Below the pieces are notes generated by a model. That model had not been told where the DNA came from. It searched no databases and worked only from the letters and a program-made list of their open reading frames with translations. Both the position numbers and the translations under genes were made by a program. Shown here piece by piece: positions 6,466-49,657 of a DNA stretch of 64,000 nt (positions within the stretch are counted from its first letter, which is position 1; the number at the start of each line of letters is the position of its first letter). The DNA is from an uncultured Alphaproteobacteria bacterium (GTDB taxonomy: Bacteria > Pseudomonadota > Alphaproteobacteria > Rhizobiales > Rhizobiaceae): NCBI GenBank assembly GCA_963791325.1, contig CAWBRU010000002.1:266632-330631 (forward strand), read 5' to 3'.

Positions 6466-7548
6466 ATGCCGGCGACCACGATCGCAGTCATCGAAGGCGA
6501 TGGCATCGGCAAGGAAGTGGTGCCCGAGGGGCGCCGGGTGCTCGAGGCCGCGGCCCGCGTCTTCGGGCTCGATCTGCGCTTCGAGGCCTTCCCTTGGGGC
6601 TGCGACCATCACGCGCGCTTCGGACGGATGATGCCGGAGGACGGGCTTGCCCGGATCGCCGATCACGATGCGATATTTTTGGGGGCCGTCGGCTGGCCGA
6701 CCGTGTCGGATGTGGAGTCGCTTTGGACCCTGCTGATGCCGATCCGCCGCAGTTTTCAGCAATATGTCAATCTTCGGCCGGTGCGGCTGTTCGAGGGCGT
6801 TCCCTCGCCGCTCGCCAGACCGGGCGACATCGACCTTCTGATCGTGCGCGAGAACAATGAGGGCGAGTACTCCGAAATCGGCGGCCGCATGTTCCCCGGC
6901 ACCGACCAGGAGATGGTGATCCAGAACACGGTCCTGACCCGGTTCGGCTGCGACCGGGTGATGCGCTATGCCTTCGGCCTCGCCATGAAGCGCAAGCGCA
7001 AGCTTACCTCGGCGACCAAGTCGAACGGCATCATTCACACGATGCCGTTCTGGGACGAGCGTTTCCGCGCGGTCGCGGCCGAGTTCCCCGAGGTCGCAAC
7101 CGAGCAGTTCCACATCGACATCCTGGCGGCGCATTTCGTCGGCCGGCCGTCGCGTTTCGACGTGGTGGTGGCGAGCAATCTGTTCGGCGACATCCTTTCC
7201 GATCTCGGCCCGGCGGTGACGGGGACGATCGGCATCGCTCCCTCGGGCAACATCAACCCGGAACGGCGCTTTCCGTCGATGTTCGAGCCGGTGCACGGCT
7301 CGGCCCCCGACATCGCCGGCAAGAACATCGCCAATCCGATCGGCCAGATCTGGTCCGGTGCCATGCTGCTCGACCATCTCGGCGCCCCGGAGGCGGCGGC
7401 GGCCATCGTCGGCGCCATCGAGCGGGTGCTCGCCGCGGGCGATACCTTGACCCCCGACATGGGCGGACAGGCGTCGACCGCAGCTCTCGGCCAGGCGGTC
7501 GCCGAGGCGGTTTCATCGCACCCTGCGAAGGCACGTCGTCATGGCTGA
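6466..7548 (+). CDS. tartrate dehydrogenase/decarboxylase-like enzyme (isocitrate/isopropylmalate dehydrogenase family)
   Basis: 360 aa with IAVIEGDGIGKEV, NLRPVR, LIVRENNEGEYS and SNLFGDILSDLG, the family hallmark motifs. Confidence 0.8.
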   Translation: MPATTIAVIEGDGIGKEVVPEGRRVLEAAARVFGLDLRFEAFPWGCDHHARFGRMMPEDGLARIADHDAIFLGAVGWPTVSDVESLWTLLMPIRRSFQQYVNLRPVRLFEGVPSPLARPGDIDLLIVRENNEGEYSEIGGRMFPGTDQEMVIQNTVLTRFGCDRVMRYAFGLAMKRKRKLTSATKSNGIIHTMPFWDERFRAVAAEFPEVATEQFHIDILAAHFVGRPSRFDVVVASNLFGDILSDLGPAVTGTIGIAPSGNINPERRFPSMFEPVHGSAPDIAGKNIANPIGQIWSGAMLLDHLGAPEAAAAIVGAIERVLAAGDTLTPDMGGQASTAALGQAVAEAVSSHPAKARRHG

Positions 7549-10096: not shown

Positions 10097-10873
10097 ATGA
10101 GCAAATCGCTGAGCGGAAAAGTGGCCGTCGTCACCGGTGCCGGCCGCGGCATCGGCGCGGCGATCGCCGCACGGCTGCTCGACGACGGTGCCGACGTGTT
10201 CGCGCTCGACAAGGCTGCGCCGGAGGAGCCGCATCCGGGCGTCAGCTATCTCGAGACCGACGTCACCGACCCGGCCAGCGTCGCCGACGCTTTCCGGGCA
10301 ATCGACAGCCGAGGCGGACGGCTCGATATCCTGGTCAGCAATGCCGGGATCCAGCGCGTCGGGCTGATCGGCAAGATCTCCTATGCCGACTTCTCGGCAG
10401 TGATCGCCACGCACCTCAACGGGCTCTTCCTGTGCGCCTCAGAAGCAGTGCCGCGCATGGTCGCGGCCGGCAACGGCGGCGCGATTGTCAGCATCGCCTC
10501 GACCGCAGCGTTCGTCGGCCTGCCGGGGCGCGGCCCGTACTGCGCGGCGAAGGCGGGGATCCTCGGCCTGACCCGTGCGCTGGCGCTCGAAGTGGCAAGC
10601 GCCGGCATCCGCGTCAATGCCGTCGCGCCTGGCTTCACCCGCACCAAATTCATCGAACAGGGGCTGAAGGACGGGTCGCTGCAGGAGGACTGGATGGTGG
10701 CCCGCGTGCCGATGAAGCGGCTCGCTGCGACCGACGAGATCGCCGAGGCGGTGCGCTTCCTGGCCGGCGGGGAATCCTCCTACATGACCGGCCAGAGCCT
10801 GGTCGTCGACGGCGGCTGGATCGTCCAGGGGATCCCGGAGGCGCCGACCTGGCTGAAGACACCGGCGACATGA
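10097..10873 (+). CDS. SDR-family oxidoreductase
   Basis: 258 aa with KVAVVTGAGRGIGAAIA, YCAAKAG and NAVAPGFT. The RBS GAAGGGAGG lies upstream. Confidence 0.85.
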   Translation: MSKSLSGKVAVVTGAGRGIGAAIAARLLDDGADVFALDKAAPEEPHPGVSYLETDVTDPASVADAFRAIDSRGGRLDILVSNAGIQRVGLIGKISYADFSAVIATHLNGLFLCASEAVPRMVAAGNGGAIVSIASTAAFVGLPGRGPYCAAKAGILGLTRALALEVASAGIRVNAVAPGFTRTKFIEQGLKDGSLQEDWMVARVPMKRLAATDEIAEAVRFLAGGESSYMTGQSLVVDGGWIVQGIPEAPTWLKTPAT

Positions 10874-12435
10874 TCCCAGGTCGGTTCAACCTGGCGGACC
10901 ATTGCGTCGGCCACGCAGCACGGGCCGTTCCCGGCAAGGCCGCGCTGCTGGTCGTCGACGACGTCGATCGGCCCGAAACGGCTGAGCGCTGGACTTACCA
11001 GGCGCTCGACCTCGCCGTCCGGCGCATTGCCGGCGGGCTGCTGGCGGAAGGACTGCTGCCGGGAGAACGCATCCTATTGCGGCTTCCCAACCGCAGCGAC
11101 GTCGCCCTGGTTTTCCTCGGCGCGATCGCGGCCGGGCTGGTGCCGGTGCCGACCTCGCCGCAGCTGACCGCAGCCGATTCCGCCTTCCTGCTGGCGGATG
11201 CCGCAGCGGCCGCGGTGGTCCATGGCGGCGGCGTGCCGCTCGGGCAGGTGCCGGCGCGCTGCAAGGTGCTCGGCGAAGCGGAGCTTGCCCGGCTCAAGGC
11301 CGCGACGCCGCTGCCGAGCTATGCGGCGACGATGGCCGAGGCCCCGGCCTTCATGATCTACACCTCGGGCACGTCGGCGCAGCCGAAGGGCGTGGTGCAT
11401 GCGCAGCGCACGGTGATCGGCCGGGTGCCGATGCAGCGGGAGTGGCAGGGCCTGTCGGCAGCCGACGTGATGCTCCACGCCGGCGCCTTCAACTGGAGCT
11501 TCACCCTGGGCGTCGGCCTGCTCGACCCGTGGTCGGCGGGGGCGACGGCCGTGCTCTACACGGGACCCAAGGACATCGCGATGTGGCCGCGGCTGATCGA
11601 TGCCGTCGGGGCGACGCTGTTCGCGGCCGTGCCGTCGCTCTACCGGCAGATCCTGAAATATTGCCTGCTGGAACCCGGCTGTCTTGCCACCCTACGCCAT
11701 GGGCTGGCCGCCGGCGAGGCGCTCGCCCCGGCGGTCTTGGAGGACTGGCGGCGGGCCACCGGCAAGGAGCTCTACGAAGCCTTCGGGATGAGCGAATGCT
11801 CGACCTTCGTGTCGAACGGCGCCGGGCGGCCGATCCGCCCGGGCAGCCCCGGCAAGCCGCAGGGCGGGCGGCCGATCGCCATCCTGCCTGTCGACGGCGG
11901 CACGACGCCGGCCGCGGCGGGCAGCGCCGGACTGCTTTCCATCGGCCGCGGCGACGCCGGCCTGATGCTCGGCTATTGGAACCGTCCCGAGGCGGAGGAG
12001 CAGGCTTTTCGCGGCGACTGGTTCGTCAGCGGCGATCTCGCCGTGTTCGACGATGACGGCTATCTTTGGCATCGCGGCCGCGCCGACGAGGTGCTCAATG
12101 CCGGCGGGTACCGAGTGTCGCCGCGGGACGTGGAGAGCGCGCTTTCGGCCTGCCCGGGCGTGGCCGAGGTGGCGGTGGCGGAGTATCGGCCGCGGCCCGA
12201 CGTCACCGTCCTCGCCGCCTTCGTCGTCCGGGCCGAAGGGTGTGCCGTGACGGCAGACGAGATCCTCGCCGCCGCGGCGGAACGGCTCGCCGGCTACAAG
12301 CGGCCGAAACAGCTGTTCTTCGTGCGCAGCTTGCCGCGCAGTGCCAACGGCAAGCTGCTCCGCCGGGCGCTGCCCGGCTTGGCCGAGACCGCCGAAGCTA
12401 CACCTCAAGCACCAGTGTCGGCGCCCCCGTCCTGA
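10870..12435 (+). CDS. AMP-dependent synthetase/ligase (acyl/aryl-CoA ligase)
   Basis: The ATG at 10870 overlaps the SDR stop. The AMP-binding motif IYTSGTSAQPKGVVH, a later GDWFVSGD and the C-terminal GKLLRR are present. Confidence 0.85.
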   Translation: MIPGRFNLADHCVGHAARAVPGKAALLVVDDVDRPETAERWTYQALDLAVRRIAGGLLAEGLLPGERILLRLPNRSDVALVFLGAIAAGLVPVPTSPQLTAADSAFLLADAAAAAVVHGGGVPLGQVPARCKVLGEAELARLKAATPLPSYAATMAEAPAFMIYTSGTSAQPKGVVHAQRTVIGRVPMQREWQGLSAADVMLHAGAFNWSFTLGVGLLDPWSAGATAVLYTGPKDIAMWPRLIDAVGATLFAAVPSLYRQILKYCLLEPGCLATLRHGLAAGEALAPAVLEDWRRATGKELYEAFGMSECSTFVSNGAGRPIRPGSPGKPQGGRPIAILPVDGGTTPAAAGSAGLLSIGRGDAGLMLGYWNRPEAEEQAFRGDWFVSGDLAVFDDDGYLWHRGRADEVLNAGGYRVSPRDVESALSACPGVAEVAVAEYRPRPDVTVLAAFVVRAEGCAVTADEILAAAAERLAGYKRPKQLFFVRSLPRSANGKLLRRALPGLAETAEATPQAPVSAPPS

Positions 12436-16087: not shown

Positions 16088-16110
16088 GCCGAGGTCGGCT
16101 TGACCAGCGC

Positions 16111-16206
16111 GGATCACCGAGTGTTCGAATCGGTGCTCCGCTCCAAGTCTTTGTTTTTTCGCAATTCCGGACGGAAAACCGTCGCCGCTTTTCCTGGAAT
16201 TGCTCT
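16111..16206 (+). repeat. ~95-bp intergenic repeat, copy 2
   Basis: GGATCACCGAGTGTTCGAATCGGTGCTCCGCTCCAAGTCTTTGTTTTTTCGCAATTCCGGACGGAAAACCGTCGCCGCTTTTCCTGGAATTGCTCT. Its right end abuts or overlaps the TAG stop (16205-16207) of the minus-strand E1-like gene. Confidence 0.7.
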
Positions 16207-19020: not shown

Positions 19021-19072
19021 AACGGTTCCTCCTCCCGGTTTTCCACGTCTCCTGGAATTGCTCTCGTGCCGC

Positions 19073-19765
19073 CTAGCCCTCGCCCGGCTGCGGCTCCTTG
19101 GCTTTCAGCGACGACAGCTTGGCAAACACCGCGCTCGGATCGAGCTCCTTGTCCTCGTCGCGCGGCTGCTGGGTATCGGCCGGCAACCTTTCCGTCATCG
19201 AGGCCGGCAGCAGCGTATCGCCGGTCGGCTGGGCCGGCTGCTGGCCGCGCGAGGCGCGCTGCACCTCGAGGTCGAGGTCGATCTGCGAGCACAGCCCGAG
19301 CGTCACCGGGTCCATCGGCACCAGATTGGCCGAATTCCAGTGCTTGCGTTCGCGGATCTGCTCGATCGTCGACTTGGTCGTGCCGACCAGACGGGAAATC
19401 TGCGCGTCCTTGAGCTCGGGATGGTTGCGCACCAGCCACAGGATGGCGTTCGGCCGGTCCTGCCGCTTCGACAGCGGCGTATAGCGCGGTCCCTTGCGCT
19501 TCTGGTCGGGCACCCGCACCTTGGGATCCGAAAGCTTCAGCCGGTGGTTGGGATCAGCCTCGCCGCGGGCAATCTCCTCGCGCGTCAGCTGGCCGGTGAT
19601 CACCGGGTCCATGCCCTTGATGCCTTGCGCCGATTCACCGTCGGCGATGGCCTTCACCTCGAGCGGGTGAAGCGTGCAGAACTGGGCGATCTGCTCGAAG
19701 GTCAGCGCCGTATTGTCGACCAGCCAGACGGCGGTCGCCTTCGGCATCAAGAGTGTGTTGGCCAT
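19073..19765 (-). CDS. DUF1013-domain protein (TrcR-like cell-cycle regulator family)
   Basis: MANTLLMPKATAVWLVDNTALTFEQIAQFCTLHPLEVKAIADGE ... PLSKRQDRPNAILWLVRNHPELKDAQISRLVGTTKSTI is the characteristic alphaproteobacterial DUF1013 sequence. Confidence 0.8.
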   Translation of the reverse strand: MANTLLMPKATAVWLVDNTALTFEQIAQFCTLHPLEVKAIADGESAQGIKGMDPVITGQLTREEIARGEADPNHRLKLSDPKVRVPDQKRKGPRYTPLSKRQDRPNAILWLVRNHPELKDAQISRLVGTTKSTIEQIRERKHWNSANLVPMDPVTLGLCSQIDLDLEVQRASRGQQPAQPTGDTLLPASMTERLPADTQQPRDEDKELDPSAVFAKLSSLKAKEPQPGEG

Positions 19766-24828: not shown

Positions 24829-25855
24829 CTAAGGTCGTGCCTGCCTGGTCGAGCCGCGGACCGTAAGGGTCAGTCCGAGGACGAGCGGCTTCTGCCGGCG
24901 CGGCCGGGCGCTCTTCAGCTGCTTCAGGAGAAGCTCGATCGAGGCGCGGCCGATAGTTTCGGCGGGAATGGCGACCGTGGTCAGTTCCGGCGTCAGCATG
25001 CGGGCAAAGGCGATATCGTTGAAGCCGACCACCGACAGCTCGTCCGGAATGGCGCGACCGAGCTTGTGGGCGGCACGATAGGCTGCCGCAGCCAGCAGAT
25101 CGTCGTCGCAGAACAGCGCGGTGATCGGCTGTGCCGCAAGCAGCGCCTCGGCTGCGCGCATGGCGCTGTCGAGATCAAAGGTGGTGACCGCCCGCCAGGC
25201 CGGATCGAAGCAAAGGCCGTGACGGGCCAAATTCTGCAGGAAGCCGTCGAAGCGGCGGCTGAACGTGGCCCTCTCATAGGCGGCGGCCAGATAGCCGATG
25301 CGGGTGTGGCCGAGGCCCGCCAGGTGATCGACGATCGCCTCCATCGCCCCGGCAAGGTCGAGATCGATGCCGCTCGCCTTCAGATCCTTCGAACTCGACG
25401 AGCAGGATCTTGCGTCGAACGGCAACCGGCCGCCGTTCGATCGCGCCGTCGCTGGCATAGACGATGCAGCCGGCGATCAGCCGGCTGTCGATCATGCCGA
25501 GCAGGCGATCGACCCAAGCCGGGTCGTTGCTGATGTCGATCAGCAGCACACCATGATTGTTCTCTCGCGCGGCGAGTTCGGCGGCAACCAGCACCTGACC
25601 GAAGAAAGGCTGCTGCACATCCGGAACGGCGAGCCCCAACAGCTTGAGCACGCCGGTGCGTAGCATCTGCGCCGAAGCGTTGGGGTGGTACCCCAGTTGC
25701 CGGGCGGTCTTCTCGACCAGCGTCTGGGTCGCTTTCGACACGCGGCCCTCGGCCTTGCCCGACATCACCAGCGAGACTGTGGATTGCGAGACACCGGCAG
25801 CCTTGGCCACCGAGAAGCTGGTGATCGAACGCGGGGGTCGGACTGCCTTGGTCAT
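24829..25855 (-). pseudogene. LacI-family transcriptional regulator with a 1-nt frameshift near 25390
   Basis: The HTH is ITSFSVAKAAGVSQSTVSLVMSG...ARQLGYHPNASAQMLR. The ligand-binding domain continues in the frame of ORF 24829..25458 (HLAGLGHTRIGYLAAA ... SVVGFNDIAFARMLTPELTTV). 1027 nt minus 1 gives 342 codons. Confidence 0.75.
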
Positions 25856-25926
25856 GGATCCGGTGCTCGTATGCTGTTGCTCATACGTACTCCGGCCAAG
25901 CCGATCAAGCGCGGAGATGATGGACA

Positions 25927-26022
25927 TCATACGAATGACACGATGGCGCCGGCCGGTGCGCCGCAGTCCTTTCCCAGACGGGTAGTCATACGTATGACAA
26001 AATCGTTCGTCATACCTATGAC
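25927..26022. promoter_or_regulatory. three CG-centred palindromic operator-like sites upstream of the LacI-family gene
   Basis: TCATACGAATGAC (25927-25939), the perfect palindrome GTCATACGTATGAC (25985-25998) and GTCATACCTATGAC (26009-26022). They lie 72-167 bp upstream of the start at 25855. Confidence 0.45.
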
Positions 26023-26096: not shown

Positions 26097-26123
26097 TTGA
26101 CTGTCCTATGAGAGGACAGTCAA
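26097..26123. other. perfect 11-bp-stem hairpin/inverted repeat TTGACTGTCCT-ATGAG-AGGACAGTCAA
   Basis: Read directly from the sequence. There is no flanking T-run, so the function (operator, RNA structure or terminator) is unknown. Confidence 0.4.
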
Positions 26124-26214
26124 GCAGCCTGACCTGGAGCACGAGCCGGAAACGCGGTCCGATTGCCGAACAAACGCGAAACGTTTTTGGGCGACGATGG
26201 CGCTCAATCGAAGG

Positions 26215-26312
26215 ATGAGCAACTCCGGGAAAAGTGGAAACGGTTTTCCGTCCGGAATTACAGAAAAGCAAAGACTTAGAGGGGAGCACCGGTTCGAGGA
26301 AACGGTGATCCG
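26215..26312 (-). repeat. ~95-bp intergenic repeat, copy 3 (inverted orientation)
   Basis: The reverse complement reads GGATCACCGTTTCCTCGAACCGGTGCTCCCCTCTAAGTCTTTGCTTTTCTGTAATTCCGGACGGAAAACCGTTTCCACTTTTCCCGGAGTTGCTC. Confidence 0.7.
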
Positions 26313-26460
26313 CTCGAGCAGCTTCAATGCGAAACGCCCGTCCGTCCGCTGTGTCGCACTGCGCTGCAACTCTATGCGCGCGCTCGGACGGAAAGCCTCG
26401 GCCCTCGCCGTCCGCGGCGATCGCAAGGCCACCAAATCGTGCTCCTCGAGGAGGACTTGA

Positions 26461-28082: not shown

Positions 28083-28108
28083 CATATGATCTAATCATAT
28101 GATTGTCA
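28083..28108. promoter_or_regulatory. AT-rich palindrome cluster upstream of autotransporter 1
   Basis: CATATGAT (28083-28090), the perfect palindrome AATCATATGATT (28093-28104) and TGATTGTCA (28100-28108). They lie 44-69 bp upstream of the 28152 start. Related sites occur at 43380, 54065, 58378, 59406, 60979 and 60990. Confidence 0.35.
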
Positions 28109-29099
28109 GAAACCGGGCATACCAAGCGTCTCTGCATTTGATGCCGCCACATTGAAAGACATTGACTTCAACGAGAGGGTGCGTTTGACCGCCGGCTTCA
28201 ACACTCCCAGGCGCTGTCCGCGTCGGTTGTCGGGCCGGCGCAACCTGTCTCGCCGTCAACACCTATGGTGGCACAGCACGGCGCTCGTGCTCGTAGCCGC
28301 GATGCTCGGCCATCCGCAAGCGGCCAGCGCGCAAAGCACGTCGGGATTTACCTTTGGCTACGATTTCGTTGGCGTTGGCGACCAAAGCGGCGGAACAGGA
28401 TCAACCGCGGAGCCGGCGGCGACTTATCAAGGATCGTATGCATTCGCGTTTCCTGTTTTTGACTATTCAGGCGGTCACCTTCTGGCAGAATATGGCATTC
28501 CTCAGGCCTGGGACAAAGGATTTGTGCCGACCGATGGGCAGACCGCGATCTTTACCAGTATGAGTGTTGGAGCGCCCTACAATTACATAAGGGTGAGCCA
28601 GACTTATTATCCGGGTGAGTTTTCTTATACATCTGACGCACCGTCTTATCATATCTTTGTTGAAAGCGGGCTCGTGTTTACGGGCTCCGGAATCGACAAT
28701 CAATCATGGGAATCAAAGCAGTATCTGACGGCGGAAGGAGCTGGCTCACTTATCCTCTTCGCGAACCATGCATCGGCTGGCGACGCCTACCTATCGACGT
28801 TCGGCACGAATTCGCAGATCGCATTTATCGGCAGCAGCAATGCCGAAGATGCACACATCAACCTCGCGTCGGGTACCGCCCTCATCGTCTCGACCAGCGA
28901 CGGTGCCCTGACAATCGGCGACCTCAGCGGAACCGGTTTTGTCTACGCAGACAATGAGTTCGGCGGCGCGCAGACCCAAGTCCTCTCCTTTGGCGCCGCC
29001 GGGTCCAGCTTTCATGAATTCGACGGCAACCTCCGAGACAATCCCACGAACGGCGCGATACTGTCGTTGAAGAAGGTCAGCATCGGCGGACTGAACCTC

Positions 29100-31650
29100 G
29101 GCGGCGTCAATCTCTATACCGGCCCTACGACGATCAGCCGCGGCCGGTTGGCGTTGGTAGGAGGCGGATCGATCGCGGATTCGAGCGAAGTCGACTTGGC
29201 CAATGCCGGTGTGACGTTCGCAATCGGGAACACGACAGCCGGAGCCTCGATCAGGACGCTGCGCGGGGTCGGCGGCTCGACGGTGGATCTGGGCGCGCAG
29301 ACGCTGACCGTTACCCAAGCGTCGAGCGGTTTTTCAGGTGTGATCCTGGGCACCGGCGGCCTGACCGTTGCAGGCGGCACCGAGACACTCGGCGGCGTCA
29401 ATACCTATACCGGGCAAACCGCGATCGCGGGTGGGACACTGGTGCTCAGCGGCGCCGGCTCGATCGCCGGTTCGAGCGACGTCGGTCTCAGCGGCGCAGA
29501 CGCCAAGTTCGACATTTCGCAGACGAACAGCGGCGCTTCGATCACGACGCTGGACGGCGTTGCCGGCTCGGCGGTCGAGCTGGGAACGCAGTCGCTGACC
29601 GTGGCCAATGGATCGCCTGCATCGGCATTCGCAGGGGCGATCCATGGCTCGGGCGGCTTGACCCTGTCGGGCGGCACCCAGACACTCGCGGGCGTCAACA
29701 CCTACACTGGGCAAACCACCATTTCCGGTGATGGACTGGCGCTCAGCGGCGACGGCTCGATCGCCGGTTCGAGCCGAAATCAACCTGGCCAGCGGCGCAA
29801 CGTTCGACATCTCGGGCACGCGTGGCGGGGCTTCGATCACGACGTTGAACGGGTCTGCCGGTTCGACGGTGTCGCTGGGCGCGCAAACATTGACGCTCAC
29901 CGATTCATCTACCCTCTTTGCAGGAACGGTCGAGGGCTCGGGCGGCCTGACGCTCGCTCAAGGCGAGATGTTCCTCGCCGGCGTCAACACCTATACCGGC
30001 GTCACCATGATCGATCATGGCCGGCTCGACCTGGGCGGAACCGCCTCGATCGCCGAACTCGAGCACACTCTTCCTCGGCAATTCCGACGCCACCTTCGAC
30101 ATCAGCCAGACCACCAACGGCGCGTCGATCGGATCGCTCTCCAGCTTCGGCGGATCGGTCGAGCTCGGCACTCAAACCCTGACCATCACCAATGCGAAAT
30201 CCGGATTGTTCCGGGGCACCATCAGCGGCGATGGCGGGCTCAGGCTGGCGGGCGGCAACCAGAATTCTTGCCGGATTCAACACCTACCAGGGCGGCACGG
30301 TCATCGACGCCGGAGCGACCCTTGCGCTCGGCTTCGGCGACACGGCCGGCGCCATCATCGGCGACGTCATCGACAATGGCACGTTCACGTTCAACCGTTC
30401 GAACGCCTTCACGCTTTCCGGCCCGATCTCGGGTTCCGGCGGGGTAAGCCAAGTCGGCTCCGGCACGACGACGCTCTCCGCAGCAAACGTCTTCACCGGG
30501 CGAACCGCGGTGAGCAAGGGTACGCTGGCGCTCTCCGGCCAAGGATCGATCGCGAGCTCCAACGCCGTCAACCTCAGTGCCGGCACCACCTTCGACATTT
30601 CCGGGACGACGGCGGGCACATCGATCACGACGCTCGACGGCGCTGCCGGCGCGACCGTGGCGCTGGGGACGCAGCCGCTGACCATCACCCGCGGGTCGAC
30701 GACCTTCGCAGGCAACATCCAGGGCTCCGGAGGCCTCTCGGTCTCGGGCGGCACGCAGACGCTCGCCGGCGAAAACAGCTACAGCGGAGCAACGACGGTG
30801 AGCGGCGGCAAATTGGCGCTCTCCGGAAGCGGCTCGATCGCCGGCTCGAACCGGCTCACCCTCAACAATCCGGGCACCACGTTCGACATTTCCGAGACGA
30901 CGGCGGGCACATCGATCACGACGTTGAACGGTGCCGCCGGCTCGACGGTGGCGCTGGGCGCGCAGACGCTGACGCTGACCAACGCGTCGAACACGTTTCA
31001 AGGCGCGATCCAGGGCTCGGGCGGGCTGACACTGTCGGGCGGCAGCGAGCGCCTGTCGGGGGCCAACAGCTACACCGGCGCGACCACGATCGATAACGGC
31101 ACACTGGATTTGCTCCAAACCGGTTCGATTGCGAGCTCGAGCGAGGTCGACCTCCCCAACTCGAACGCCACCTTCGACATCTCGCGGGCGACGGCCAAGG
31201 CCGCGATCACGTCGCTCGCCGGCATCGCCGGCTCGAGTGTCGACCTCGGCACGCAGACATTGGCGATCACCAACGGGTCGACAGGCTTTGCCGGCGTGAT
31301 CGACGGCCTTGGCGGTCTGGAGGTGTCGGGCGGCACCCAGACGCTCGCCGGCGTCAACCGCTACCTGGGAGCGACCACGGTGAGCGGCGGCACGCTGGTC
31401 CTGGCAGGCACCGGCGCGATCGCCGGCTCGAGCGAGGTCGACCTCGGCGGTTCGGGAGCGACCTTCGATATCGCAAGGACGGCCAATGGTGCGTCGATCC
31501 AGACGCTCGACGGCGTCGGCGGCACGACCGTTTCGCTGGGCTCCGAAACATTGACCATCGCCAATGCTTCCACGACCTTCGGCGGCGCCATCCAAGGGCC
31601 CGGCGGCCGTCTGGCAATCGCCCGCGGCACCCAGGTCCTCACCGGCGTCA
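29100..31650 (+). repeat. tandem ~297-bp (99-aa) coding repeats inside AT1, about 8-9 copies
   Basis: GVNTYTGQT... recurs at 29395, 29692 and about 29987. The unit consensus is NTYTG-TT-GG-L-LSG-GSIA-SS-V-L---ATFDIS-T--GASITTL-G-AGS-V-LG-QTLT-T--S--FAG-I-GSGGL-LSGGTQTLAG. Confidence 0.7.
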
Positions 31651-32129
31651 GCACCTATGGCGGCGGAACATCGATCGCCACCGGGGCAACCCTTCAGCTC
31701 GGCAATGGCGGCGCGGGCGGCTCGATCGCCGGCGACGTCACCGACAATGGCATGCTGATTTCCGACCGATCGGATTCCGCCCAGCTTTCGGACGTGATCT
31801 CGGGTTCGGGCAGTCTCAAGAAAATCGGCTCCGGCGACCTCCTGCTCGCCGGCAGCAACACCTACGCCGGCGGCTCCTCCCTCGGGACCGGAAGCCTGAG
31901 CCTCGGTTCGAACACGGCGCTCGGCTCCGGGCAACTGACCATGCAGGCCGGGACGACCCTTGACGCGGCCGCACCTGGTCTCGCGGTCGCCAATTCCATC
32001 AGCCTCGCCGGCGATGTCGTTTTCGACAGCGGAGCCAATCTTTGGCAGCTGGCCGGCAACATCGGCGGGCCGGGTGGTTTCACCAAAGAGGGAACGGGAA
32101 GCCTGTCGCTGACCGGCCGCGAGAGCTAT

Positions 32130-34960
32130 CGGGGAGCGACCACGATCAGCAACGGCACCTTGGTGGGCGCGGGTCCCGATTTCGGCTTTGCCCGGGGAAG
32201 CGCCTTCACGCTTCAGTCAGCCGGCCGGCTGTCCGTCGAAAGCTCCGAGGAGATCGGCTCGCTCGCCGGCAGCGGCGAAGTCAACATCGCCGGCGATACC
32301 GAGTTGATCCACGGCGGCAACGATCAGAGCACGATTTTCTCGGGCCTGCTCTCCGGCACGGGCAGCTTCGACAAGACGGGAGCCGGCACCTTCACCTTCA
32401 GCGGCGACGGTTCCGGCTTCACCGGCCAAACCGATGTCGAGGACGGTACGCTGCTGGTCGACGGGTCGCTCAGCAGCGCAGCCGTCTCGGTTTCGGCCGG
32501 CGCGCTGGGCGGCAACGGCCGCATCGCCGGCGCTGTCTCCGTCGGCGCCGCTTCACTGCAAGGCCTTCAAGGCCGGACGCTGACGATGGGCAGCCTGAAA
32601 CTGAGCAGCTCGGCTCACGCCGACGTCACTTTGGGCGCACCCGGCACGATGCCGCTGTTCGATGTCCTCGGAAATCTGAAGCTCGACGGGACCTTGAACG
32701 TCACCGACGCCGGCGGCTTCGGTGCGGGCGTGTACAGGCTTATCAACTACGGCGGTGTCTTGACCAACAGCGGCATGGTCATCGGCACGGCACCCGATCA
32801 GGGCGAGCTCGCCGTGCAGACCGCAGTTCCCAACCAGGTCAATCTGGTCAACCGGGCCGGCCAAAACCTGACCTTCTGGGATGGCGGCAATCCGATCGAC
32901 TGGAGCAACGGCCGCGTCGATGGAGGCACCGGGACCTGGGACCTGACCACGGAAGCTTGGACGGGTCAGGATGGTGCCGTCGATGGACCGATGACCCCTC
33001 ACCCCGCCTTTGAGATATTCCAGGGCGCGCCGGGACAGGTCACCGTCAGCGACCGGAATGGCGACGTCGGCGTGACCGGCATGCAGTTCTTCGTCGACGG
33101 CTACAGCGTTGTCGGCGATCCGATTACTTTGGCAGACCCGCAAACGGCGATCGTCGTCGGCGACGGCACCTCGGCCAGCGCCGGCATGAGCGCCGTGATC
33201 TCCGCGCCGCTGACCGGCATCGGCGGGCTCGTCAAGCGCGACCTCGGCACGCTCACCCTCGCCGGCCAAAACAGCTACGCCGGCGGCACGGTGATCGAGG
33301 CCGGCACGCTTGCGGTCTCGAGCGATGGCGGGCTCGGGGACAGCTTGGGCGGGCTGACCTTCGACGGCGGCACGCTCCGGTTCGGGGCCGACGTCACCAG
33401 CGACCGCACCGTCAGCCTGGACGATGGGGGCGGCACCGTCGACACAGACGGCTTCCGAGCGACGCTCGGCGGCTCGATCGACGGTGTGGGCGCCTTGACC
33501 AAGGTCGGCAGAGATAGGCTGCGGCTGACCGGCACCGGCAGCTATTCGGGGCCGACCCTCATCGACGCCGGCACCCTGCAGGCCGGCATCGCCGATGCCT
33601 TCTCGGCGAGCAGCGCCTACACCGTCGGCTCCGGCGCAACCCTCGACCTCGCCGATCTCGACCAGACTATCGGCTCGCTTGCCGGCAGCGGCAACGTGAC
33701 GTTCGGCTCGGCGACGCTGACCACTGGCGGAGACAATCGAAGCACCGCCTTCGATGGCATCCTATCCGGGCAAGGTGGCCTCACCAAGGTCGGCACAGGC
33801 ACCTTCACGCTCGACGGCGACGGCTCCGGTTTCGACGGCCAAACCGCTGTCGACGCCGGCACCTTGCTGGTCGGTGGGCCGCTCGGCACCGGTTCCGTCT
33901 CCGTTCAGGACGGGGCGACGCTTGGCGGCAGCGGCATCATCGGCGGCGATGTCTCTGTTTCCGGCACGCTGCAGGGCATACAGGGCCAGACGCTGACAAT
34001 GGGCAGCCTGACGCTGGGCAGCCCAGCTCGGACCGACGTGACGCTCGGGACACCGGGCGGCGCCTCGCTGTTCGATGTCGGCGGCGATCTCACCCTCGAC
34101 GGCACCTTGAACATCGCCGATGCCGGCGGCTTCGGCGCCGGGGTCTACCGGCTGTTCGACTATGGCGGCGCGCTCGCCGATGAGGGGCTCGCCATCGGCA
34201 CGGCGCCAAATCCCACCGACCTGGCGATCCAGACCGCCATCGCCACCGAGGTGAACCTCGTGAACCGAGCCGGCCAGAACCTCACCTTCTGGGACGGCGG
34301 CAACCCGGCCGACTGGAACAACGGCCGTATCGACGGCGGCGCGGGGACCTGGGATCTTCTCGCCGAAGCCTGGACGGGCGAGAACGGCACGATCAACGGG
34401 CCGGCCCTTCAGCCCGCCTTTCCCGTATTCCAAGGCTCGCCTGGCGTGGTCACCGTGAGCGACCGCAACGGCGATGTGGCGGTGACCGGGATGCAGTTCT
34501 TCGTCGACGGCTATCATGTGGCCGGCGACCCGCTCACTTTGGCCGATGCGCAGACCGCGATCATCGTCGGCGACGGATCCTCGGCCGGTGCCGGCATGGC
34601 AGCCACCATCTCCGCACCGCTCACCGGCGCCGGCGGCCTGTTGAAGCGCGATCTCGGCACGCTCACCCTCGCCGGCCCGAACACCTATTCCGGCGGCACG
34701 GTGGTCGAGGCAGGTACGCTGGCTCTGACCAACGGTCAGGCGATCGGCACCGGGTCACTGTCGCTCGATCCCGGCACGGCACTCGGCCTCGCCGGCTCTT
34801 TCACGCTCGCCAACGCCGTCAGCCTCGCCGGCGATCCCTCAGTCGAGGTCACCGCCGGCAATGCCGCGGTGCTCGGCGGCGCCATCAGCGATGCGCCGGG
34901 TGCAGCCGGCGAGCTGGAGAAGACCGGGGAAGGGACACTGACGCTCACCGGGCAGAACAG
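32130..34960 (+). repeat. ~1.41-kb (471-aa) tandem duplication inside AT1
   Basis: GTGSFDKTGAGTFTFSGDGSGFTGQTDVEDGTLLVDG (about 32355) matches GQGGLTKVGTGTFTLDGDGSGFDGQTAVDAGTLLVGG (about 33768). Both are followed by the same ...NLVNRAGQNLTFWDGGNP-DW-NGR-DGG-GTWDL--EAWTG... module. Confidence 0.65.
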
Positions 34961-36882
34961 CTATTCCGGCGGCACGGTGGCGGCGGCCGGCACGCTGGTC
35001 GGCTCGTCCGGGAGCCTGGGCAGCGGTGCCATTCTGGACAACGCCGCGCTGGTTTTCGATCAGCAGGCAGACGGGACCTTTGCCGCCCCGATCTCCGGCA
35101 GCGGTACGCTGGAAAAGAGCGGCACCGGGCAGCTCTTCCTCACGGCGATGAGCGCGCTTTCCGGTGCGACCACGGTGAGCGCCGGCACGCTGGTGGTCGA
35201 GGGTTCGCTGGCCGGCTCCGCGGCAACCGTCCTGTCGGGCGCCACACTCGGCGGCTCAGGCACGGTCGGCGCACTGACGGCCGAGAGCGGCGCAACGGTC
35301 GCCCCCGGCGCGGCGGTGCCGTTCTCCACCTTGAACGTCGCCGGCAATGCCAACTTCGCGCCCGGCTCGATCCTTGCCGTCTATGTCGGCCCGGGAGGCC
35401 AGAACGACAAGCTCGCCGTCGGCGGCACGGCAACGCTGTCGGGCGGCACAGTGGTGGTGACGCCCCAGTCCGGCACCTATACGCCGCTCAGCCGCTACAC
35501 GCTGGTGTCGGCGACCGGCGGTGTGTCGGGCCGTTTCGCCGGTCTGACCACCCCATCCGACGTTGCCGACAGTTTCGCCTTTCTGTCGCCGGAGCTTGTC
35601 TATGGCCCCGAGAGTGTGACGCTCGGCTTTACCCAGACCGCCGACTTCCCGACATTTGCCGGGACCGGCAACCAAGCCGCTGTCGCCGAGGCACTGCAAG
35701 CGCTCGGCCTCGGCAACCCGCTTTATGATGCGGTGATCGGCCAGAGCCAAGCCGGTGCCGAACAGGCCTTCAATGCGCTGTCGGGCGAGGTGCATGGCAG
35801 TCTCGCAACGGCCACCTTGCAGGACTCCGGTCTCGTCCGCGCTGCCATCCTCGATCGGCTGAGCGGGACAGGCTCGGCGCCGGCTGCCGACACCGAGCCG
35901 CCGGCGACCACCGCAGCGCTTGCGCCTGGGATGGCGCCGGCTTTCTGGACCCAGGCCTTCGGTGTTGACGGCCGCGGCGACGGCAATGGCGATGCCGCCG
36001 CGATGACGCGCTCAACGAGCGGCGTCCTCATCGGCGGCGATGTCGGCGGCCTCGATCTTTTCCGCGGCGAGGCCCGGCTGGGAGCGGCCGGCGGCTATCT
36101 CCACGACAGCCTCGACGTGCCGGAGCGTAAGTCGACTGCCACCGCCGAGCAAATCTTCGCAGCAGTTTACGGCGGTGCCCGGTTCGGCCAGGTCGTGACA
36201 AGCCTCGGCGCCGCTTACAGCCATCTCAATCAAGACAGCAGCCGGCAAGTCTTGTTTCCCGGCTTTGCCGAAGGCGTCTCGGCCGACGGTGACGGCTGGC
36301 TCGGCCAGATGTTCGGTGAGATCGGCTATCGCGTCGACCTCGACGATCCGCTGGGCGGCAGCGGGGCGGTCACCAGCGCGATGATCGAGCCGTTTCTGGG
36401 CGGTGCCGCCATCCACCTCCACCAGGACGGCTTTGCCGAGACCGGCGGGACGGCGGCGCTCACCGCCGCCGGGCAGAGCCAGGATCTGGAAACCACCACC
36501 CTCGGGGTCAGGCTCGAGAGCGAGCTCGCCATCGCCGTGCCGTTTACCTTCCACGGCCTCTTCGGCTGGCGCCATGCCTATGGCGATGTCAGCCCCGAGG
36601 CGAGCCTTGCGTTTGCCGGCGGTGCGCCCTTCACCGTCGCCGGGGTGCCGCTCGACCGCGATGCCTTCGTCGCTGAGGCCGGGCTCGAGGCAAAGCTCGG
36701 TGGGCGTGCCGGCTTCGGCCTGTCCTATACCGGCCAGTTCGGCAGCCGGGGGTCCGAAAACGCCATCAATGCGCGGCTCACCGTGAACTTTTGAGGGTGT
36801 GCTGACCCGTCAGCGTTTCAGGTCGTGCCGTGGTCGGCATCTCGGCGGCCAGAACATCGGATCAACGCGCCGCAAGCCGGCT

Positions 36883-37806: not shown

Positions 37807-40800
37807 CTACCACCTGACCGTCAGGCCGAGATTGGCCTCGAGGACCCGCTCCTTCGCGCCGCCCAGACCTAAGGTGTAGTCGCCGGTGGCATGGATGCTG
37901 ACATGCTTGCCCAGCGCAGCCACCACGCCGCCGCCGAGGTCCAAGGCGGTGCCGCCGATTTCGGTCGTAAACGGGTTGCCGTCGAAACGCACGGTGTCGG
38001 TGGTCGGGAAATAGTCCCAGACATTGGCCTTGAGGTAGGGCTGCAGCTTACCGTAGGGCGTTTCGAAGTTGCCCGCCAATCGCAGCCCTACCCTGCCGGT
38101 CAAGCTGTTGCCGGGCTCGAGCGATACCGTCGAAAACTCCGTCCGGGTGTCGTCGAACCAGAAACGCTGCCAGATCAGCTGAGCTTGCGGCTCCAGCTGC
38201 CAGCGCGGCGACAGCACGAACGGATAACCGGCCTCGAGGGAGGCGGTCAGCCCTCTGCCGTCGGCGTCGATGCCGACGCCGCGGTCGGAATATGCCTCGC
38301 CGCCGTAGAAATCGGCACTGGCGATGGCATCGATGTAGCCGCCCGTCGGCCCGACATTGGTGTAGTAGGCGCCGACGCTGTCGGTGTTGAGATGCACGCC
38401 GCCCAGCGTGCCGAGCCCCGGCAGCAAGTTCGGTTCGGAGATGCCGGCATCGGCCGTGACGTGCCCGTAGAACAGGCCTGCGGTGTGGATGTGCCCATCG
38501 CTGGTCTCGGCGCGCAGCATATCGAGCCCGGTCTGCAGCCCCCACAGATGGCCGTCGAGCGCGGGCGAGATCTCGCCTTGCCAACCCTGATCGAACTGGC
38601 GGCCGAAGAGACGCCCCCAGGCGGCCGAGAAATCGTCCCCGGGAACGAGCACGTCCTGATCGCCGCGGCGCTCGTGGAAGGTACTGGTCAGGCGCGCCGC
38701 CAAGGCGATCGATTCGGCGACGGGGACTTCCGGGCTGATCGAAGTGGTTCTGAGGTACCAGTCCTGCGGCGTGCCGCCGCCCAACCCGCCCTTGAACAGA
38801 TTGTAGTCGTAGCCGCCTGCCGACACGGTGTTGCCGAGCGCAAACCCGTCGGCGCTGGCGCCGTTCAGCGCTTCGACGACAAGAATGCCGTCGCTTGCGG
38901 TGCGCGCGCCGTGTCCCCCTCGGTTGGTGACGAAGAGGCTGGTTTGGCCGCTCGCCGCGCCGCCGTCGATGACGATCCGGTCGGAGGGTGAGCCGTCGGC
39001 GCCGAGCACGGTGTTGATCGCCGCCGTGGAGCCGGGTCGGCCGACGAGGTTGCCAATCACGACGAGCCGGTTGCCGACGCCTTGCCCGCCGATCTGCAGC
39101 AGGCCGCCATTGTCGAGGGTTCCGTCGACCGTGAAGGTGCCGTTGGCGCTGCCGGCAAAGACTGGCAGGGCGTCGGCGACCGCGACCGTGCCCTGGTTGG
39201 CGACCATGCCGGCAACGCTGCCGTAGCCGCCGAGCGTCGCGCCGGCGACGACATCAACGGGACCGCCGCCGGACAACGCCGCACCGGAATGGGCCGGATC
39301 GCCGACCGCGAGCGTTCCGGCCAGCACGGCGGTGCCGCCGGAATAGGGATCGTCGGCGGTGAGGATTGTGGTGCCGGATCGGATCTGTGCCACGGCGCCG
39401 GCACCGGAGATGACACCGCCGAAGGTCACGGTGTCGGAGCGGTCGAAAGCGAGCACACCATTGTCGAGCACGTTGCCCATAACGCTGCCGCTGGTGCCGC
39501 CGTTGCCGAGATGCAGGGCGCCGGCCGAGATCGTCGTGCCGCCGCTGTAGGTGTTGTCGGCGGTGAGCACCGTGGTGCCGGTGCCGATGTGGGCCAGGGA
39601 GCCGGTCCCAGAGATGATGCCGGGGAAGGTCACGGTGTCGGAGCGGTCGAAGGCGAGCACACCGTTGTCGAGCACGTTGCCGACGATGCTGCCTGAGGTA
39701 CCGCCGTCGCCGAGCTGAAGCGTGCCGGCCGAGATCGTCGTGCCGCCCGCATAAGTGTTGTCGGCGGTGAGCACGGTGGTGCCGGGACCGATCTGGGCCA
39801 GGGACCCGGTTCCCGAGACCAGGCCTGCAAAGGTCACGGTGTCGGACCGGTCGATGGTGAACTGGCCGTTGTCGAGCACATCGCCCAAAATGCTGCCGGT
39901 GGTGCCGCCGGTGCCGAGCTGCAGCGTGCCGGCCGAGATCGTCGTGCCGCCGCTGTAGGTATGGTCGGCGGTGAGCACCGTGGTGCCGGTGCCGATCTGG
40001 GCGACGCTGCCGGTGCCGAAGATCGTGCCGCCGAAGCTCAACGTGTCGGCACGGTCGAAGACGAGCCGGCCGTCGTCGCTGACATCGCCCACAATGCTGC
40101 CGCTGGTGCCGCCATTGCCGAGCTGAAGCGTGCCGTTCACGACCGTGGTGCCGCCGGTTTAGGTGCTGTCGGCGGCGAGCACCGTGGTGCCCGTCCCGAT
40201 CTGCGCCACGTAGCCGGTGCCCGAGATCACGCCGGGAACGCTGAACCGATCGGAACGGTCGAAGGCGAGCACACCATTGTCGAGCACGTCGCCGATGATG
40301 CTGCCGCTGGTGCCGCCGTTGCCGAGCCACAACGTGCCGTCGGCAATCGTGGTGCCGCCGGTATAGGTGCTGTCGCCGGTGAGCACGGTGTCGCCGTCGC
40401 CGAATTGCAAGACGCGCCCGCTCCCGGAAATGACGCCGGGCACGACCAGCATATCGGCGCGGTCGATGCCGAGCACGCCGTTGTCGAGCACGTTGCCGAC
40501 GATGCTGCCCGAGGTGCCGCCGTCGCCGAGCTGCAAGGCGCCGGCCGAGATCGTCGTGCCGCCGGTATAGGCATTGTCGGCGGTGAGCACGGTGGTGCCG
40601 GTGCCGATCTGGGCCAGGGACCCGGTTCCCGAGACCAGGCGGGGGAAGGTCACGGTGTCGGAGCGGTCGAAGGCGAGCTGGCCGTTGTCGAGCACATCGC
40701 CCAAAATGCTGCCGGTGTCGCCGCCGTCGCCGAGCTGCAGGGTGCCGGCCGAGATCGTCGTACCGCCGGTGTATGTGTTGTCGGCGGTGAGCACGGTGGT

Positions 40801-43346
40801 GCCGGGACCGATCTGAGCGACGCTTCCGGCGCCGAAGATCGTGCCGCCGAAGCTCAACGTGTCGGAGCGTTCGAAGGCCAGCCGGCCCTCGTCGAGCACA
40901 TCGCCCACAATGCTGCCGCTGGTGCCGCCATTGCCGAGCTGCAAGGTGCCGTCCGAGATGGTCGTGCCGCCATCATAAGAATTGTCGCCGGTGAGCACGG
41001 TGGTGCCGGTGCCGTATTGCCCGACGTAACCGCTCCCGGAAATGACGCCGGGCAGGACGAGCGTATCGGAGCGGTCGAAGCCGAGCAGGCCGTCGTCGAC
41101 CACGTCGCCGACGATGCTGCCGCTGGTGCCGCCATTGCCGAGAATTAACTTTCCGCCCGCAATCGTGGTGCCGCCGGTATAGCTGCCGGTACCCGTCAGA
41201 ACCAAGACCCCGAAGCCGGTTGCGGTGAGCCCGCCGGGACCATCGCCGTTGGCGATCGGTCCCGAAAGCGTCAACGTATATCCCGATGTGTCGACGGTGC
41301 CGCCGGCTGTGTTCACGAAGAACGGGTTGGCGAAAGACAGGTTGTCGCTGACGGACTGGAAGGTGCCGCCATCGAAGACGCCGGCACCGGTGCCGATCGA
41401 AGCGTTGTCGGTGACCTGAAGCGTGCCGCCGGTCATCGTCGTGCCGCCGGAATAGCTGTTGGCAGACACCAGCGTCAAGGTGCCGGCGCCGAGCTTGGTC
41501 AGCTGGCCTGGTCCGTCGAGCATCTGCCCGACGGTGAAGATGTTGGTCGGGTCGGCGATGTCGAAACCGCCGCCGCCGGGACCCCAGTTGAAGACGCGCG
41601 GCGTCGCGGTAAAGGTGGTGCCGGTCACCTGCAAGGTGCCGCCGTTGAAGGTGATTGCCCCCGCGGGGCTGCCGAGATTGTTGTCGGCCGAAACCGACAC
41701 CGTGCCGCGGGTCAGAGTGGTGCCGCCGGTATAGGTGTTGACCCCGGCGAGCGTCGTCGTTCCGTCGCCGTTCTTCTCGATCGCCAGCATTCCGCCGGTG
41801 CCGCCGACGCCGTCGGAAGCGGCACTGCCGCCCGACCCGTCGAGGTCGGCGATCGCATCGGCAACGGTGTTGGTGCCGGTGCCGAAGGCGAGCGTGCCGC
41901 TCTGCATGAAGAAGCCCGAGCCGAACGCCTGCCCGCCGTTGCCGCCGGCGACGCTGCCGCCGCTGGTCACGCCGCTGCCGTTGATGGTGAGCGTGCCGCC
42001 GGAAACCACGAACACGGCGCCGCCGAGCCCGCCGCCGCCGCCGCCCGCTGTCGTGGCTCCGTTGCCGCCGGCGAAGCCGCCGACATTGTCGGTGGAACCG
42101 CCGCCGCCGAAGCCGCCGGCGCCGCCTGTGCCGTGGTTAGGGAGATCCGGGAGCGGTTGCCGAGCACCGCCGCCGCCGCCGAAGCCACCATCGGCGCCAA
42201 AATTGCCACCGCCGCCACCGCCGCCGAAGCCGCCCTCGGCGCCATTTCCGTACGGCACCGGATGACACCCTTCGCCACCGCAGCTCTCCACCGGATAGCC
42301 GCCGCCACCGCCCCCACCGAAGCCGCCATGGCCGCCATCGGCGAAGATACCGCCTCCGCCCCCGCCGCCGAAGCCACCATCGCCGCCGGTGCCAGACAGG
42401 CCGTTGGAGCTGCCGGCCAAGCCGCCAAAGCCGCCGCCACCGCCGCCCACGCCCCTTGTAGTCCCGCCGCCGCCCGTAGTGCCGCCATTGCCGCCGCCGC
42501 TGCCGCTCAGGCCCGAAATCGGCAGATTGCCGGCACCGTCCTCACCATCGCCGCTATAGCCCCCCCGGCAATCGACAAGCCGTTGCCGAACAGGCCGCCG
42601 CCTCCCCCCGGGTTGTCCAACGGGGAGGACTTGGTCGCGGACCCAAAAATGCCGCCGCCGCCACTCCCGCGGGGGCCGGAGCCACCATTGCCACCCAAGC
42701 CGCCGCCGCCACCGCCGAGCAGGTTCACCTTGCCGGTGCCGCCGTTGCCGCCCCTCGCCTGATTGCCGGTGAAATTGACGTCGGTCAGGGTGACGTCGGC
42801 GGATTGGTTGACGAACAGAGCGCCGCCGGCGCCAAGTCCGCCGCCGGCGCCGGCCCCGCCCGCACCGCCCTGGGCGACGCCCGACTCAAGCGTCAGCCCG
42901 CTGATCGCCACCTGCTGGCGCTGGGCGAGGATCGAATCGGTCGTCGGCGGGTTTCCTTGGGCGGTCGTCCGCGTCGCCTCGTCGACGCCGATCATGAAGA
43001 TGCGCGTGTTGTTGGCGGTGATCGTGTTGCCGTTGCCGACGATCGTCACCGAGTTGAAGATCGGCGACGGCGGCCCGTTCAGGGTCACGTTGCCGGTGAT
43101 CTGAATGGTGTAGGGCGGCCCGTTGCCGCCGCCTGCATTGACCTCGGCGATCGCCGCGCTGAGGCTGCCGGGCTGGGTGGTGCCGTTGGAGGCCGTGCCC
43201 GGATCGGTGCCGCCTGCCACGATAATCGTCGTCTGCGCCCACACCCCGTCCGTAAGACATGTCACCAAGATCACAACTGCAGCGCGGAGGCACCAGCCGC
43301 GGACATGTGCTCGCATAAAACTCATAACCGTCTCCTGCCTCCGCAA
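37807..43346 (-). pseudogene. type Va autotransporter (AT2, 1,846 aa if repaired) with a frameshift in a G7 tract (42560-42566) and an in-frame TAA (40159-40161)
   Basis: Signal peptide MRAHVRGWCLRAAVVILVTCLTDGVWAQ. It has a beta-helix-like head, a Gly-rich region, nine 68-aa repeats and a classical autotransporter beta-barrel ending LGLTVRW*. 5540 nt plus 1 gives 1847 codons. Confidence 0.8.
39300..41165 (-). repeat. tandem 204-bp (68-aa) coding repeats in AT2, 9 copies
   Basis: The unit is GTLQLGNGGTSGSIVGDVLDNGVLAFDRSDTVTFPGVISGTGSLAQIGTGTTVLTADNTYTGGTTISA. Copies 2-4 and 6-8 pair up, which indicates a higher-order ~816-bp duplication. Confidence 0.75.
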
Positions 43347-43364: not shown

Positions 43365-43393
43365 GTCATACGTATGGCTAAATCAAATGATTT
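43365..43393. promoter_or_regulatory. operator-like palindromes upstream of AT2
   Basis: GTCATACGTATGGC (43365-43378) is followed by AAATCAAATGATTT (43380-43393). They lie 19-47 bp upstream of the AT2 ORF start (43346). Confidence 0.4.
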
Positions 43394-43436: not shown

Positions 43437-43472
43437 AAAAACCCCGGCCGAGGCTGGAGTGCTTCGGCCGGG
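43437..43472 (-). terminator. rho-independent terminator of AT3
   Basis: On the minus strand, the 9-bp GC stem CCCGGCCGA/TCGGCCGGG (43443-43451 and 43464-43472) is followed by a T5 run (A5 at 43437-43441 on the plus strand). It begins 16 nt after the AT3 stop codon. Confidence 0.6.
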
Positions 43473-49587: not shown

Positions 49588-49657
49588 CGAAAAAGTGGCT
49601 GCCGGCTGTTCAAAAAGGGCGGGCAATCAAAGGATTAAAGTAGACACACGATTCCAG
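49588..49657. repeat. possible degenerate fourth copy of the intergenic repeat family
   Basis: CCTGATCCGAAAAAGTGGCTGCCGGCTGTTCAAAAAGGGCGGGCAATCAAAGGATTAAAGTAGACACACGATTCCAGG aligns loosely, block by block, with copy 3 (CCGGGAAAAGTGGAAACGG... / CAAAGACTTAGAGG / CACCGGTTCGAGG). Confidence 0.3.

Follow-up and report, generated by a model that had tools for sequence, protein, structure and literature searches.

The palindrome GTCATACGTATGAC, found in the 64-kb stretch of alphaproteobacterial DNA analyzed here (64,000 nucleotides; the window), very probably serves as the cognate operator for the LacI-family repressor encoded beside it, whose gene it would subject to autoregulation. This assignment of GTCATACGTATGAC to a LacI orthologous group, as an autoregulatory operator, is drawn from a phylogenetic footprint, an invariant recognition helix, a weight matrix made of foreign sites only and the known properties of the family. 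Our best explanation of the observations as a whole, which we consider probable, is that three sites upstream of the LacI-family gene (A1 to A3) would serve autoregulation of that gene, that a fourth site (B) would repress the autotransporter gene AT2, and that the role of a fifth (C) is doubtful.

Copies of the palindrome in the window

An earlier note, made from the letters of this DNA alone, had described a perfect palindrome at 25985–25998 and near copies elsewhere, and all of these are present. The window has a GC content of 66.7%, and a TrcR gene at 19073–19765 marks it as alphaproteobacterial. The 14-bp motif is of even length, with half-sites GTCATAC and GTATGAC meeting at a central CG. 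At ≤2 mismatches, five GTCATACGTATGAC-type matches were detected in the 64-kb window (25926–25939, 25985–25998, 26009–26022, 43365–43378 and 54274–54287), when compared to 0.04 expected from dinucleotide-preserving shuffles. Raising the mismatch limit to 3 yielded zero additional sites in the window; thus, the five sites form a sharp class.

Three of the sites lie 71–167 bp upstream of the LacI-family gene start at 25855, where the earlier note had counted three copies within 170 bp. Site A1 (25926–25939; ATCATACGAATGAC, which reads GTCATTCGTATGAT on the minus strand) is centered 77 nt upstream of the LacI ATG, and the perfect site A2 (25985–25998) 136 nt upstream. Site A3 (26009–26022; GTCATACCTATGAC), with CC rather than CG at its center, is centered at −160. 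The center-to-center spacing is 59 bp between A1 and A2, and 24 bp between A2 and A3. A1 and A2, as well as B with its center at −46 relative to AT2, fall inside the interval of ∼30 to 140 bp upstream of a regulated start codon that is expected for LacI-family sites, and A3 lies just outside it.

A weight matrix was built from 11 foreign sites only, taken from the orthologous loci of contigs L002, L004, L006, L008 and L034. With this matrix the five sites rank at the top of the window (A2, 26.0 bits; A1, 24.0; C, 21.9; A3, 20.5; B, 19.5), and the next best match scores 12.0 bits. A score of 18 bits was reached at least once in only 14 of 500 window shuffles. From the shuffles, the chance of finding two extra sites of ≥18 bits, as B and C are, is ∼4e-4; hence B and C are not accidents.

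The sites at 25985, 43365 and 54274 share the 19-nt extension TCATACGTATGNCNAAATC (on the reverse strand at 54274), as had been claimed for three loci. A2, B and C also have in common a flank on one side only, GATTT(A/T)G, which points the same way at each of them with respect to the ORF downstream; it does not belong to the operator as found in other species. This flank suggests, at the level of sequence, that a small promoter module was copied or that a further functional element is present. The likeness among the sites stops after ∼20 bp, beyond which the loci are unrelated, and the sites are therefore not parts of a longer repeat. A ∼95-bp dispersed repeat is present in the window, with one copy in the intergenic region between the LacI-family and FAD-linked oxidase genes (26217–26315), and could be taken to indicate that the palindromes are chance matches or pieces of a MITE or REP element devoid of any regulatory role. 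This repeat, however, holds no operator, no sequence beyond ∼20 bp is shared as copies of a MITE would share it, and both the 0.04 sites expected and the ∼4e-4 chance for B and C speak against coincidence. We regard such an origin as extremely improbable, and retain the operator assignment.

GTCATACGTATGAC probably forms the center of a longer palindrome of 16 bp, AGTCATACGTATGACT. A search with the extended motif GATTTWGYCATACGTATGAM gave 6 matches in GTDB species genomes, a set of representatives to which the organism of the window does not belong, and 12 in JGI metagenomes; these numbers are about chance level and the matches are mostly in low-GC genomes. The listed papers in which a 12-mer of the motif occurs treat unrelated subjects and give it no regulatory context. 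No consensus sigma-70 promoter was matched around the three operator loci, and the geometry of operator and promoter is therefore one that we infer. An Rfam scan of the window gave no match.

Two other elements were noted between the LacI-family and FAD-linked oxidase genes. The PurR/RbsR-like sequence GCGAAACGTTTTTG near 26178 was considered as an operator and dropped, having no comparative support, whereas the GTCATACGTATGAC type recurs at orthologous loci. A 27-bp near-perfect inverted repeat, TTGACTGTCCT...AGGACAGTCAA, lies at 26097–26123, and several of its positions differ in the same-species contig L001.

The LacI-family regulator and its orthologues

The LacI-family gene (24829–25855, minus strand) is read in two frames. 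The N-terminal piece (25274–25855) contains the LacI HTH domain (Pfam PF00356), and the C-terminal piece (24829–25476) the Peripla_BP_3 domain (PF13377) and PF00532. A search with the frame-repaired protein returned as best match P0001, an intact protein of 341 aa with 99% identity, encoded on L001 in the same arrangement. The frameshift is a single extra C at 25391 that is absent from the same-species assemblies L001 and L030; the LacI region of L030 has another 1-bp deletion, at 25065. Between the window and L001, 21 gap openings and 25 substitutions were counted in 11.2 kb, so that ∼45% of the differences are indels. Such an indel share is typical of long-read consensus errors. The frameshift reported in the earlier note is thus in the window, but the derepression of targets by a broken regulator that had been deduced from it is unsupported, because the extra C is missing from L001 and L030 and the differences are rich in indels.

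All 10 aligned orthologues have the recognition helix VSQSTVSLV and the hinge GYxPNxSAxxLRTG without variation, from which a shared operator is expected. The hinge NASAQMLRTG aligns, at the sequence level, with the RbsR hinge PSALARSLKLN, and its Leu-Arg-Thr-Gly is invariant in the 10 orthologues. As judged by this alignment, the regulator has a hinge helix with the leucine for insertion at a central CpG. The best NCBIfam models, CytR (169.9 bits vs. a cut-off of 436) and RbsR (167.5 vs. 382), score far below their cut-offs; hence the regulator is not an equivalog of CytR, RbsR or any named protein, and is a member of an uncharacterised LacI-family orthologous group. No close orthologue was found in a plasmid collection by tblastn with the regulator.

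Orthologues with 60–65% identity come from two alphaproteobacterial MAGs, one of them of the Rhizobiaceae, and from two metagenome lineages; in these, the LacI gene is divergent from a conserved operon. This operon comprises an SBP_bac_1 ABC transporter, a cytidine deaminase and an AdoHcy-hydrolase-like gene, the latter two passing the NCBIfam cut-offs of NF004064 and NF004005, respectively. The motif is present in each short LacI/operon intergenic region examined: GTCATTCGTATGAT and ATACTACGTATGAC in L002, ATCAAACGTATGAC and ATACTACGTATGAC in L004, and GTCATTCGTATGAC in both L006 and L008. A1 of the window is identical to a site in the L002 intergenic region.

In Salmonella enterica (L034), the gene of the orthologue (50% identity) is preceded by GTCAATCGTATGAC and GTCAATCGTAAGAC, and a nearby AdoHcyase-like gene by three more sites (operator coordinates 6938–6992 and 10873–10964). 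Two of these three are perfect copies of GTCATACGTATGAC placed 24 bp apart, which is the spacing of A2 and A3 in the window. By their arrangement, the five Salmonella sites look like an uncharacterised small enterobacterial regulon. At this locus, the regulator gene and a NUDIX hydrolase gene overlap, at the 3′-end of the former.

The footprint therefore covers the promoter regions of LacI orthologues in five lineages, four alphaproteobacterial ones and Salmonella, and at most of these loci the palindrome also precedes the ABC-transporter/cytidine-deaminase/AdoHcy-hydrolase-like operon. The same CG-centered palindrome at orthologous LacI promoters, together with the invariant recognition helix, bears out the reading of the motif as a LacI/GalR-type operator; an autoregulated repressor, also proposed in the earlier note, is very probable given that the orthologues carry the palindrome in their own promoter regions. 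Both features fit the family: LacI-family motifs are palindromes of even length, centered on CG in 1173 of 1303 regulators, and more than three quarters of the local LacI-family regulators are autoregulated (PMC4052901). The premise that this would be a sugar-type regulator does not hold, since the conserved neighbors of the orthologues are nucleoside-type genes. These neighbors point to a nucleoside-type role, not to sugar catabolism, and such a role is a known minority one in the LacI family (PMC4052901). In the species of the window, the regulator does not have the ancestral partner operon as its neighbor, nor was that operon found in the 64-kb window; beyond the LacI promoter region come the dispersed repeat, the split FAD-linked oxidase gene and then AT1.

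A regulator of another family (e.g., of the TetR or GntR type) might bind the palindrome, its proximity to the LacI-family gene being coincidental. Palindromes of the GT...AC form also suit GntR-type sites, and the window encodes ArsR, LysR and TetR regulators as well. On an unrelated 66% GC metagenome contig (L025, 3323–3370), GATTTAGTCATACGTATGAC lies over the start codon of a TetR-family gene that adjoins a TolC-like gene; 10 bp from this palindrome is another copy, ATACAGACGTATGAT, which is imperfect. The L025 palindrome may be a TetR operator resembling the LacI one, and the sequence of the motif by itself is thus not exclusive to LacI proteins. The motif, however, accompanies the LacI orthologue in five lineages belonging to two classes of Proteobacteria, in which the other neighboring regulators differ, and a central CG with even length is the LacI hallmark (PMC4052901). 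We consider a regulator of another family very unlikely. For the preferred reading, binding of the LacI-family repressor, the following scheme can be proposed: a repressor dimer would bind each palindrome, inserting the hinge-helix leucine at the central CpG, and in the absence of its ligand, probably a nucleoside-like molecule, would block transcription. Sites A1 to A3, which remain before the LacI gene, should then autoregulate it.

The regulator resembles local LacI-family nucleoside regulators (E. coli CytR, and the AdeR, HpxR and UriR groups) in its LacI HTH and periplasmic-binding-protein-like sensor domains, its nucleoside-type gene neighbors, its predicted autoregulation and its palindromic operator (Ravcheev et al., 2014; PMC4052901). 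It differs from CytR in its model score (170 bits vs. the cut-off of 436) and in that its operator is a contiguous CG-centered palindrome of 14–16 bp. CytR, in contrast, uses octamer repeats separated by a spacer and acts jointly with CRP. Among solved structures, E. coli PurR (1pnr) and RbsR (9ny7), and CcpA, are the nearest; they share the architecture, the hinge-helix leucine at the central CpG and the even CG-centered palindrome. The similarity to them is distant only (E ∼1e-28, 100–104 bits), the RbsR recognition helix is VSTSTVSHV rather than VSQSTVSLV, and the half-site here is GTCATAC, whereas those of the three comparators are xxGAAAC or GCAAAC. The presence of several operators in one control region recalls lac O1/O2/O3 and gal OE/OI, and the 24-bp tandem is shared with Salmonella.

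The operator and its predicted autoregulation are an ordinary example of a known LacI kind. The motif and the core regulon of the orthologous group appear to be undescribed in the literature searched. A well-supported operator, GTCATACGTATGAC, and a core regulon consisting of the regulator, the ABC transporter, the cytidine deaminase and the AdoHcy-hydrolase-like gene can thus be assigned to a group that spans Alpha- and Gammaproteobacteria, Salmonella included, and should be useful for regulon annotation.

Operator copies B and C and the autotransporter genes

Apart from the sites in the LacI promoter, B and C alone reach operator scores, and no site at AT1 or AT3 exceeds 12 bits. AT1 (28152–36794, plus strand) has an in-frame stop at 30180–30182. 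AT2 runs on the minus strand from 43325 to 37807 and is read as three ORFs: an N-terminal piece of 272 aa with a signal peptide (43325–42507), a second with PATR repeats (42450–40159), and a third with PATR repeats, the autochaperone and the beta-barrel (40140–37807; Pfam assignments). A frame change separates the first two pieces (∼42450–42507) and an in-frame stop the last two (40159–40161). Given these breaks in this assembly, AT2 may be a pseudogene. The FAD-linked oxidase gene is split as well (27633). The share of 1-bp indels among the differences between the window and L001 (∼45%) suggests that the breaks in AT1, AT2 and the oxidase gene are long-read consensus errors rather than marks of pseudogenes.

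AT3 (49424 to 43488, minus strand) ends in KVQF followed by its stop codon, with a terminator at 43443–43472. AT4 is also on the minus strand (∼53878 to 50264; ∼1203 aa; Pfam Autotransporter and PATR). Its start is probably near 53878, not at 54031, as indicated by the signal peptide MRPRAARG...AFA and by the gene calls of 1203 and 1202 aa in L028 and L029.

Site B (43365–43378, GTCATACGTATGGC) lies 39 nt upstream of the AT2 ATG at 43325, within the 110 bp that separate the AT3 terminator from the AT2 start. The core at 43365 that the earlier note had placed before AT2 is real, but the plus-strand ORF given as its target is not: the ORF at 43407 was rejected as an antisense artefact of the minus-strand AT3, whose stop and terminator adjoin the site, and the true target side is the minus-strand ATG at 43325. 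AT2 thus has a strong operator in its promoter region, at a position (−46) typical of LacI-family sites. Any AT2 promoter must overlap or abut B, which provides the best argument for direct repression of AT2: with only 110 bp open to the promoter, occupancy of B should repress the gene. From this positional evidence, we judge direct control of AT2 by the LacI protein to have an even chance of being correct.

Site C (54274–54287, GTCATACGTATGAA) had been assigned to AT4. The site is genuine, but the link to AT4 does not stand, as C lies ∼400 nt upstream of the real AT4 start and in a strain-variable segment. It is 31 nt upstream (center at −38) of a 76-codon plus-strand ORF (54319–54549) with a signal-peptide-like start that is called as a gene in L028. 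Among 1.84 billion representatives only one convincing homologue of this ORF was found, a 91%-identical protein, and no NCBIfam model matched; by these searches the ORF is probably not a conserved gene. With a variable 483-bp segment, an unconserved small ORF and a distant AT4 as its surroundings, both the target and the function of C are doubtful, and direct control of AT4 by the LacI protein appears improbable. A spacer-less variant, GTCATATGATC, claimed at 49420 at the 5′-end of AT3, has no operator score with either matrix and is part of a second palindrome, AATCAWATGATT. By the geometry of LacI–DNA complexes, a site that lacks the central 4 bp does not fit a LacI dimer. The LacI protein can be discounted as a direct regulator of AT3.

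The proposal that the regulon includes autotransporters is thus partly supported by the high-scoring operator of AT2, and not by AT4 or AT3, nor by conservation in homologues of the AT2 N-terminal region. Homologues of the N-terminal AT2 ORF occur in Xanthobacteraceae, Bradyrhizobium and Reyranella. Upstream of the closest ones (L032, 80% identity; L033, 67%; L031, 60%), whose orthology is uncertain, no operator match exceeded 10.4 bits; the best in L032 is a half-site, GTCATTCGAAATTT, ∼40 bp upstream, which scores 10.4 bits and is within noise. Among relatives, the operator is kept at the LacI orthologues and is absent upstream of the AT2 N-terminal homologues in three organisms. The autotransporter operators were seen in one species only, and control of autotransporters by the LacI repressor is put forward as a hypothesis specific to this species.

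Contigs of the same species differ in structure around B and C. The 483-bp segment holding C (53994–54476) is present in the window and L028 and absent from L029; its junctions share only GGC, no terminal inverted repeat is apparent at its two ends, and no other copy or homology was found among the sequences compared. In L029, which is 99.7–99.9% identical to the window, the 3′-end of AT3 is joined to a MoeA gene and the dispersed repeat in place of B and AT2. In L030 the AT2 region is duplicated in inverted orientation and holds two copies of B; it adjoins the FAD-linked oxidase gene at 26898, and AT1 is absent. The structural differences from L029 and L030 map in the window to 53994–54476 and 43431. 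Either the autotransporter cluster is truly plastic, or the metagenomes were misassembled at repeats.

This variability bears on whether B and C, although true LacI operators in sequence, are by-products, that is, promoter pieces of ∼20–35 bp scattered by recombination within the cluster, with incidental effects. The one-sided GATTT[A/T]G flank at A2, B and C, in one orientation and foreign to the operators of other species, is suggestive of copying; contigs of the species differ in the structure of the cluster (L029 and L030); and neither conservation in other species nor a conserved ORF behind C was observed. Against this, B sits exactly in the 110-bp AT2 promoter gap, at a spacing from the ATG that is canonical, a transferred fragment would show as a longer stretch of homology, of which none was detected, and some of the structural differences may be artefacts of metagenome assembly. 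We consider such a scattering of promoter pieces possible but rather unlikely. Direct repression of AT2 from site B, as set out above, admits a further and tentative extension: a LacI repressor of a nucleoside-type uptake and catabolism operon might have been rewired in this species, with a small-molecule signal switching at least one large surface autotransporter (AT2) from a composite promoter in which B abuts AATCAWATGATT. With AATCAWATGATT lying upstream of AT1 and AT3 and next to a TetR gene as well, the adhesin-like cluster would on this reading be under two-input control.

If the AT2 site is functional, a metabolic LacI repressor would have been recruited to a surface autotransporter, linking metabolite sensing to adhesin-like proteins, as judged for one species from the position of a site. 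No paper was found in a literature search that combined LacI family, autotransporter and operator. The autotransporter adhesin Ag43 of E. coli is controlled by OxyR and Dam. The predicted repressor site overlapping the promoter of a large surface autotransporter resembles that system, although the regulator here is of another family and there is no methylation switch.

A second palindrome and a dispersed repeat

The second palindrome is significantly enriched: its core TCATATGA occurs four times when compared to 0.22 expected, and the longer form AATCAWATGATT four times at ≤1 mismatch when compared to 0.014 expected (shuffles of pooled low-GC tiles). Copies of AATCAWATGATT lie upstream of AT1 (28093–28104, with a second, half-overlapping copy at 28084–28092), upstream of AT2 (43381–43392, two bases from operator B), upstream of AT3 (49625–49636), and between a TetR-family gene and a PepSY/cytochrome b561 operon (60991–61002). 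AATCAWATGATT thus occurs at more of the autotransporter promoters than the LacI operator does; upstream of the AT2 N-terminal homologues in other species it is lacking. A weaker copy with 2 mismatches (59407–59418) is found upstream of the TetR-family gene (59776–60519), which is therefore flanked on both sides. By its distribution, AATCAWATGATT may serve as operator for a further regulator acting on the autotransporter cluster, and the neighboring TetR-family protein is a candidate to bind it.

The dispersed repeat has copies at 26217–26315, between the LacI operators and the FAD-linked oxidase gene, and at 2053–2151 and 16109–16205, with a partial copy at 19040–19063; another, at 300–372 of L029, lies at the rearrangement junction of that contig. 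The copies are 78–86% identical, with the pattern GGTGCTCC.CTC.AA...TTTTCC.GGAATTGCTC, and the repeat looks like a REP or MITE element.
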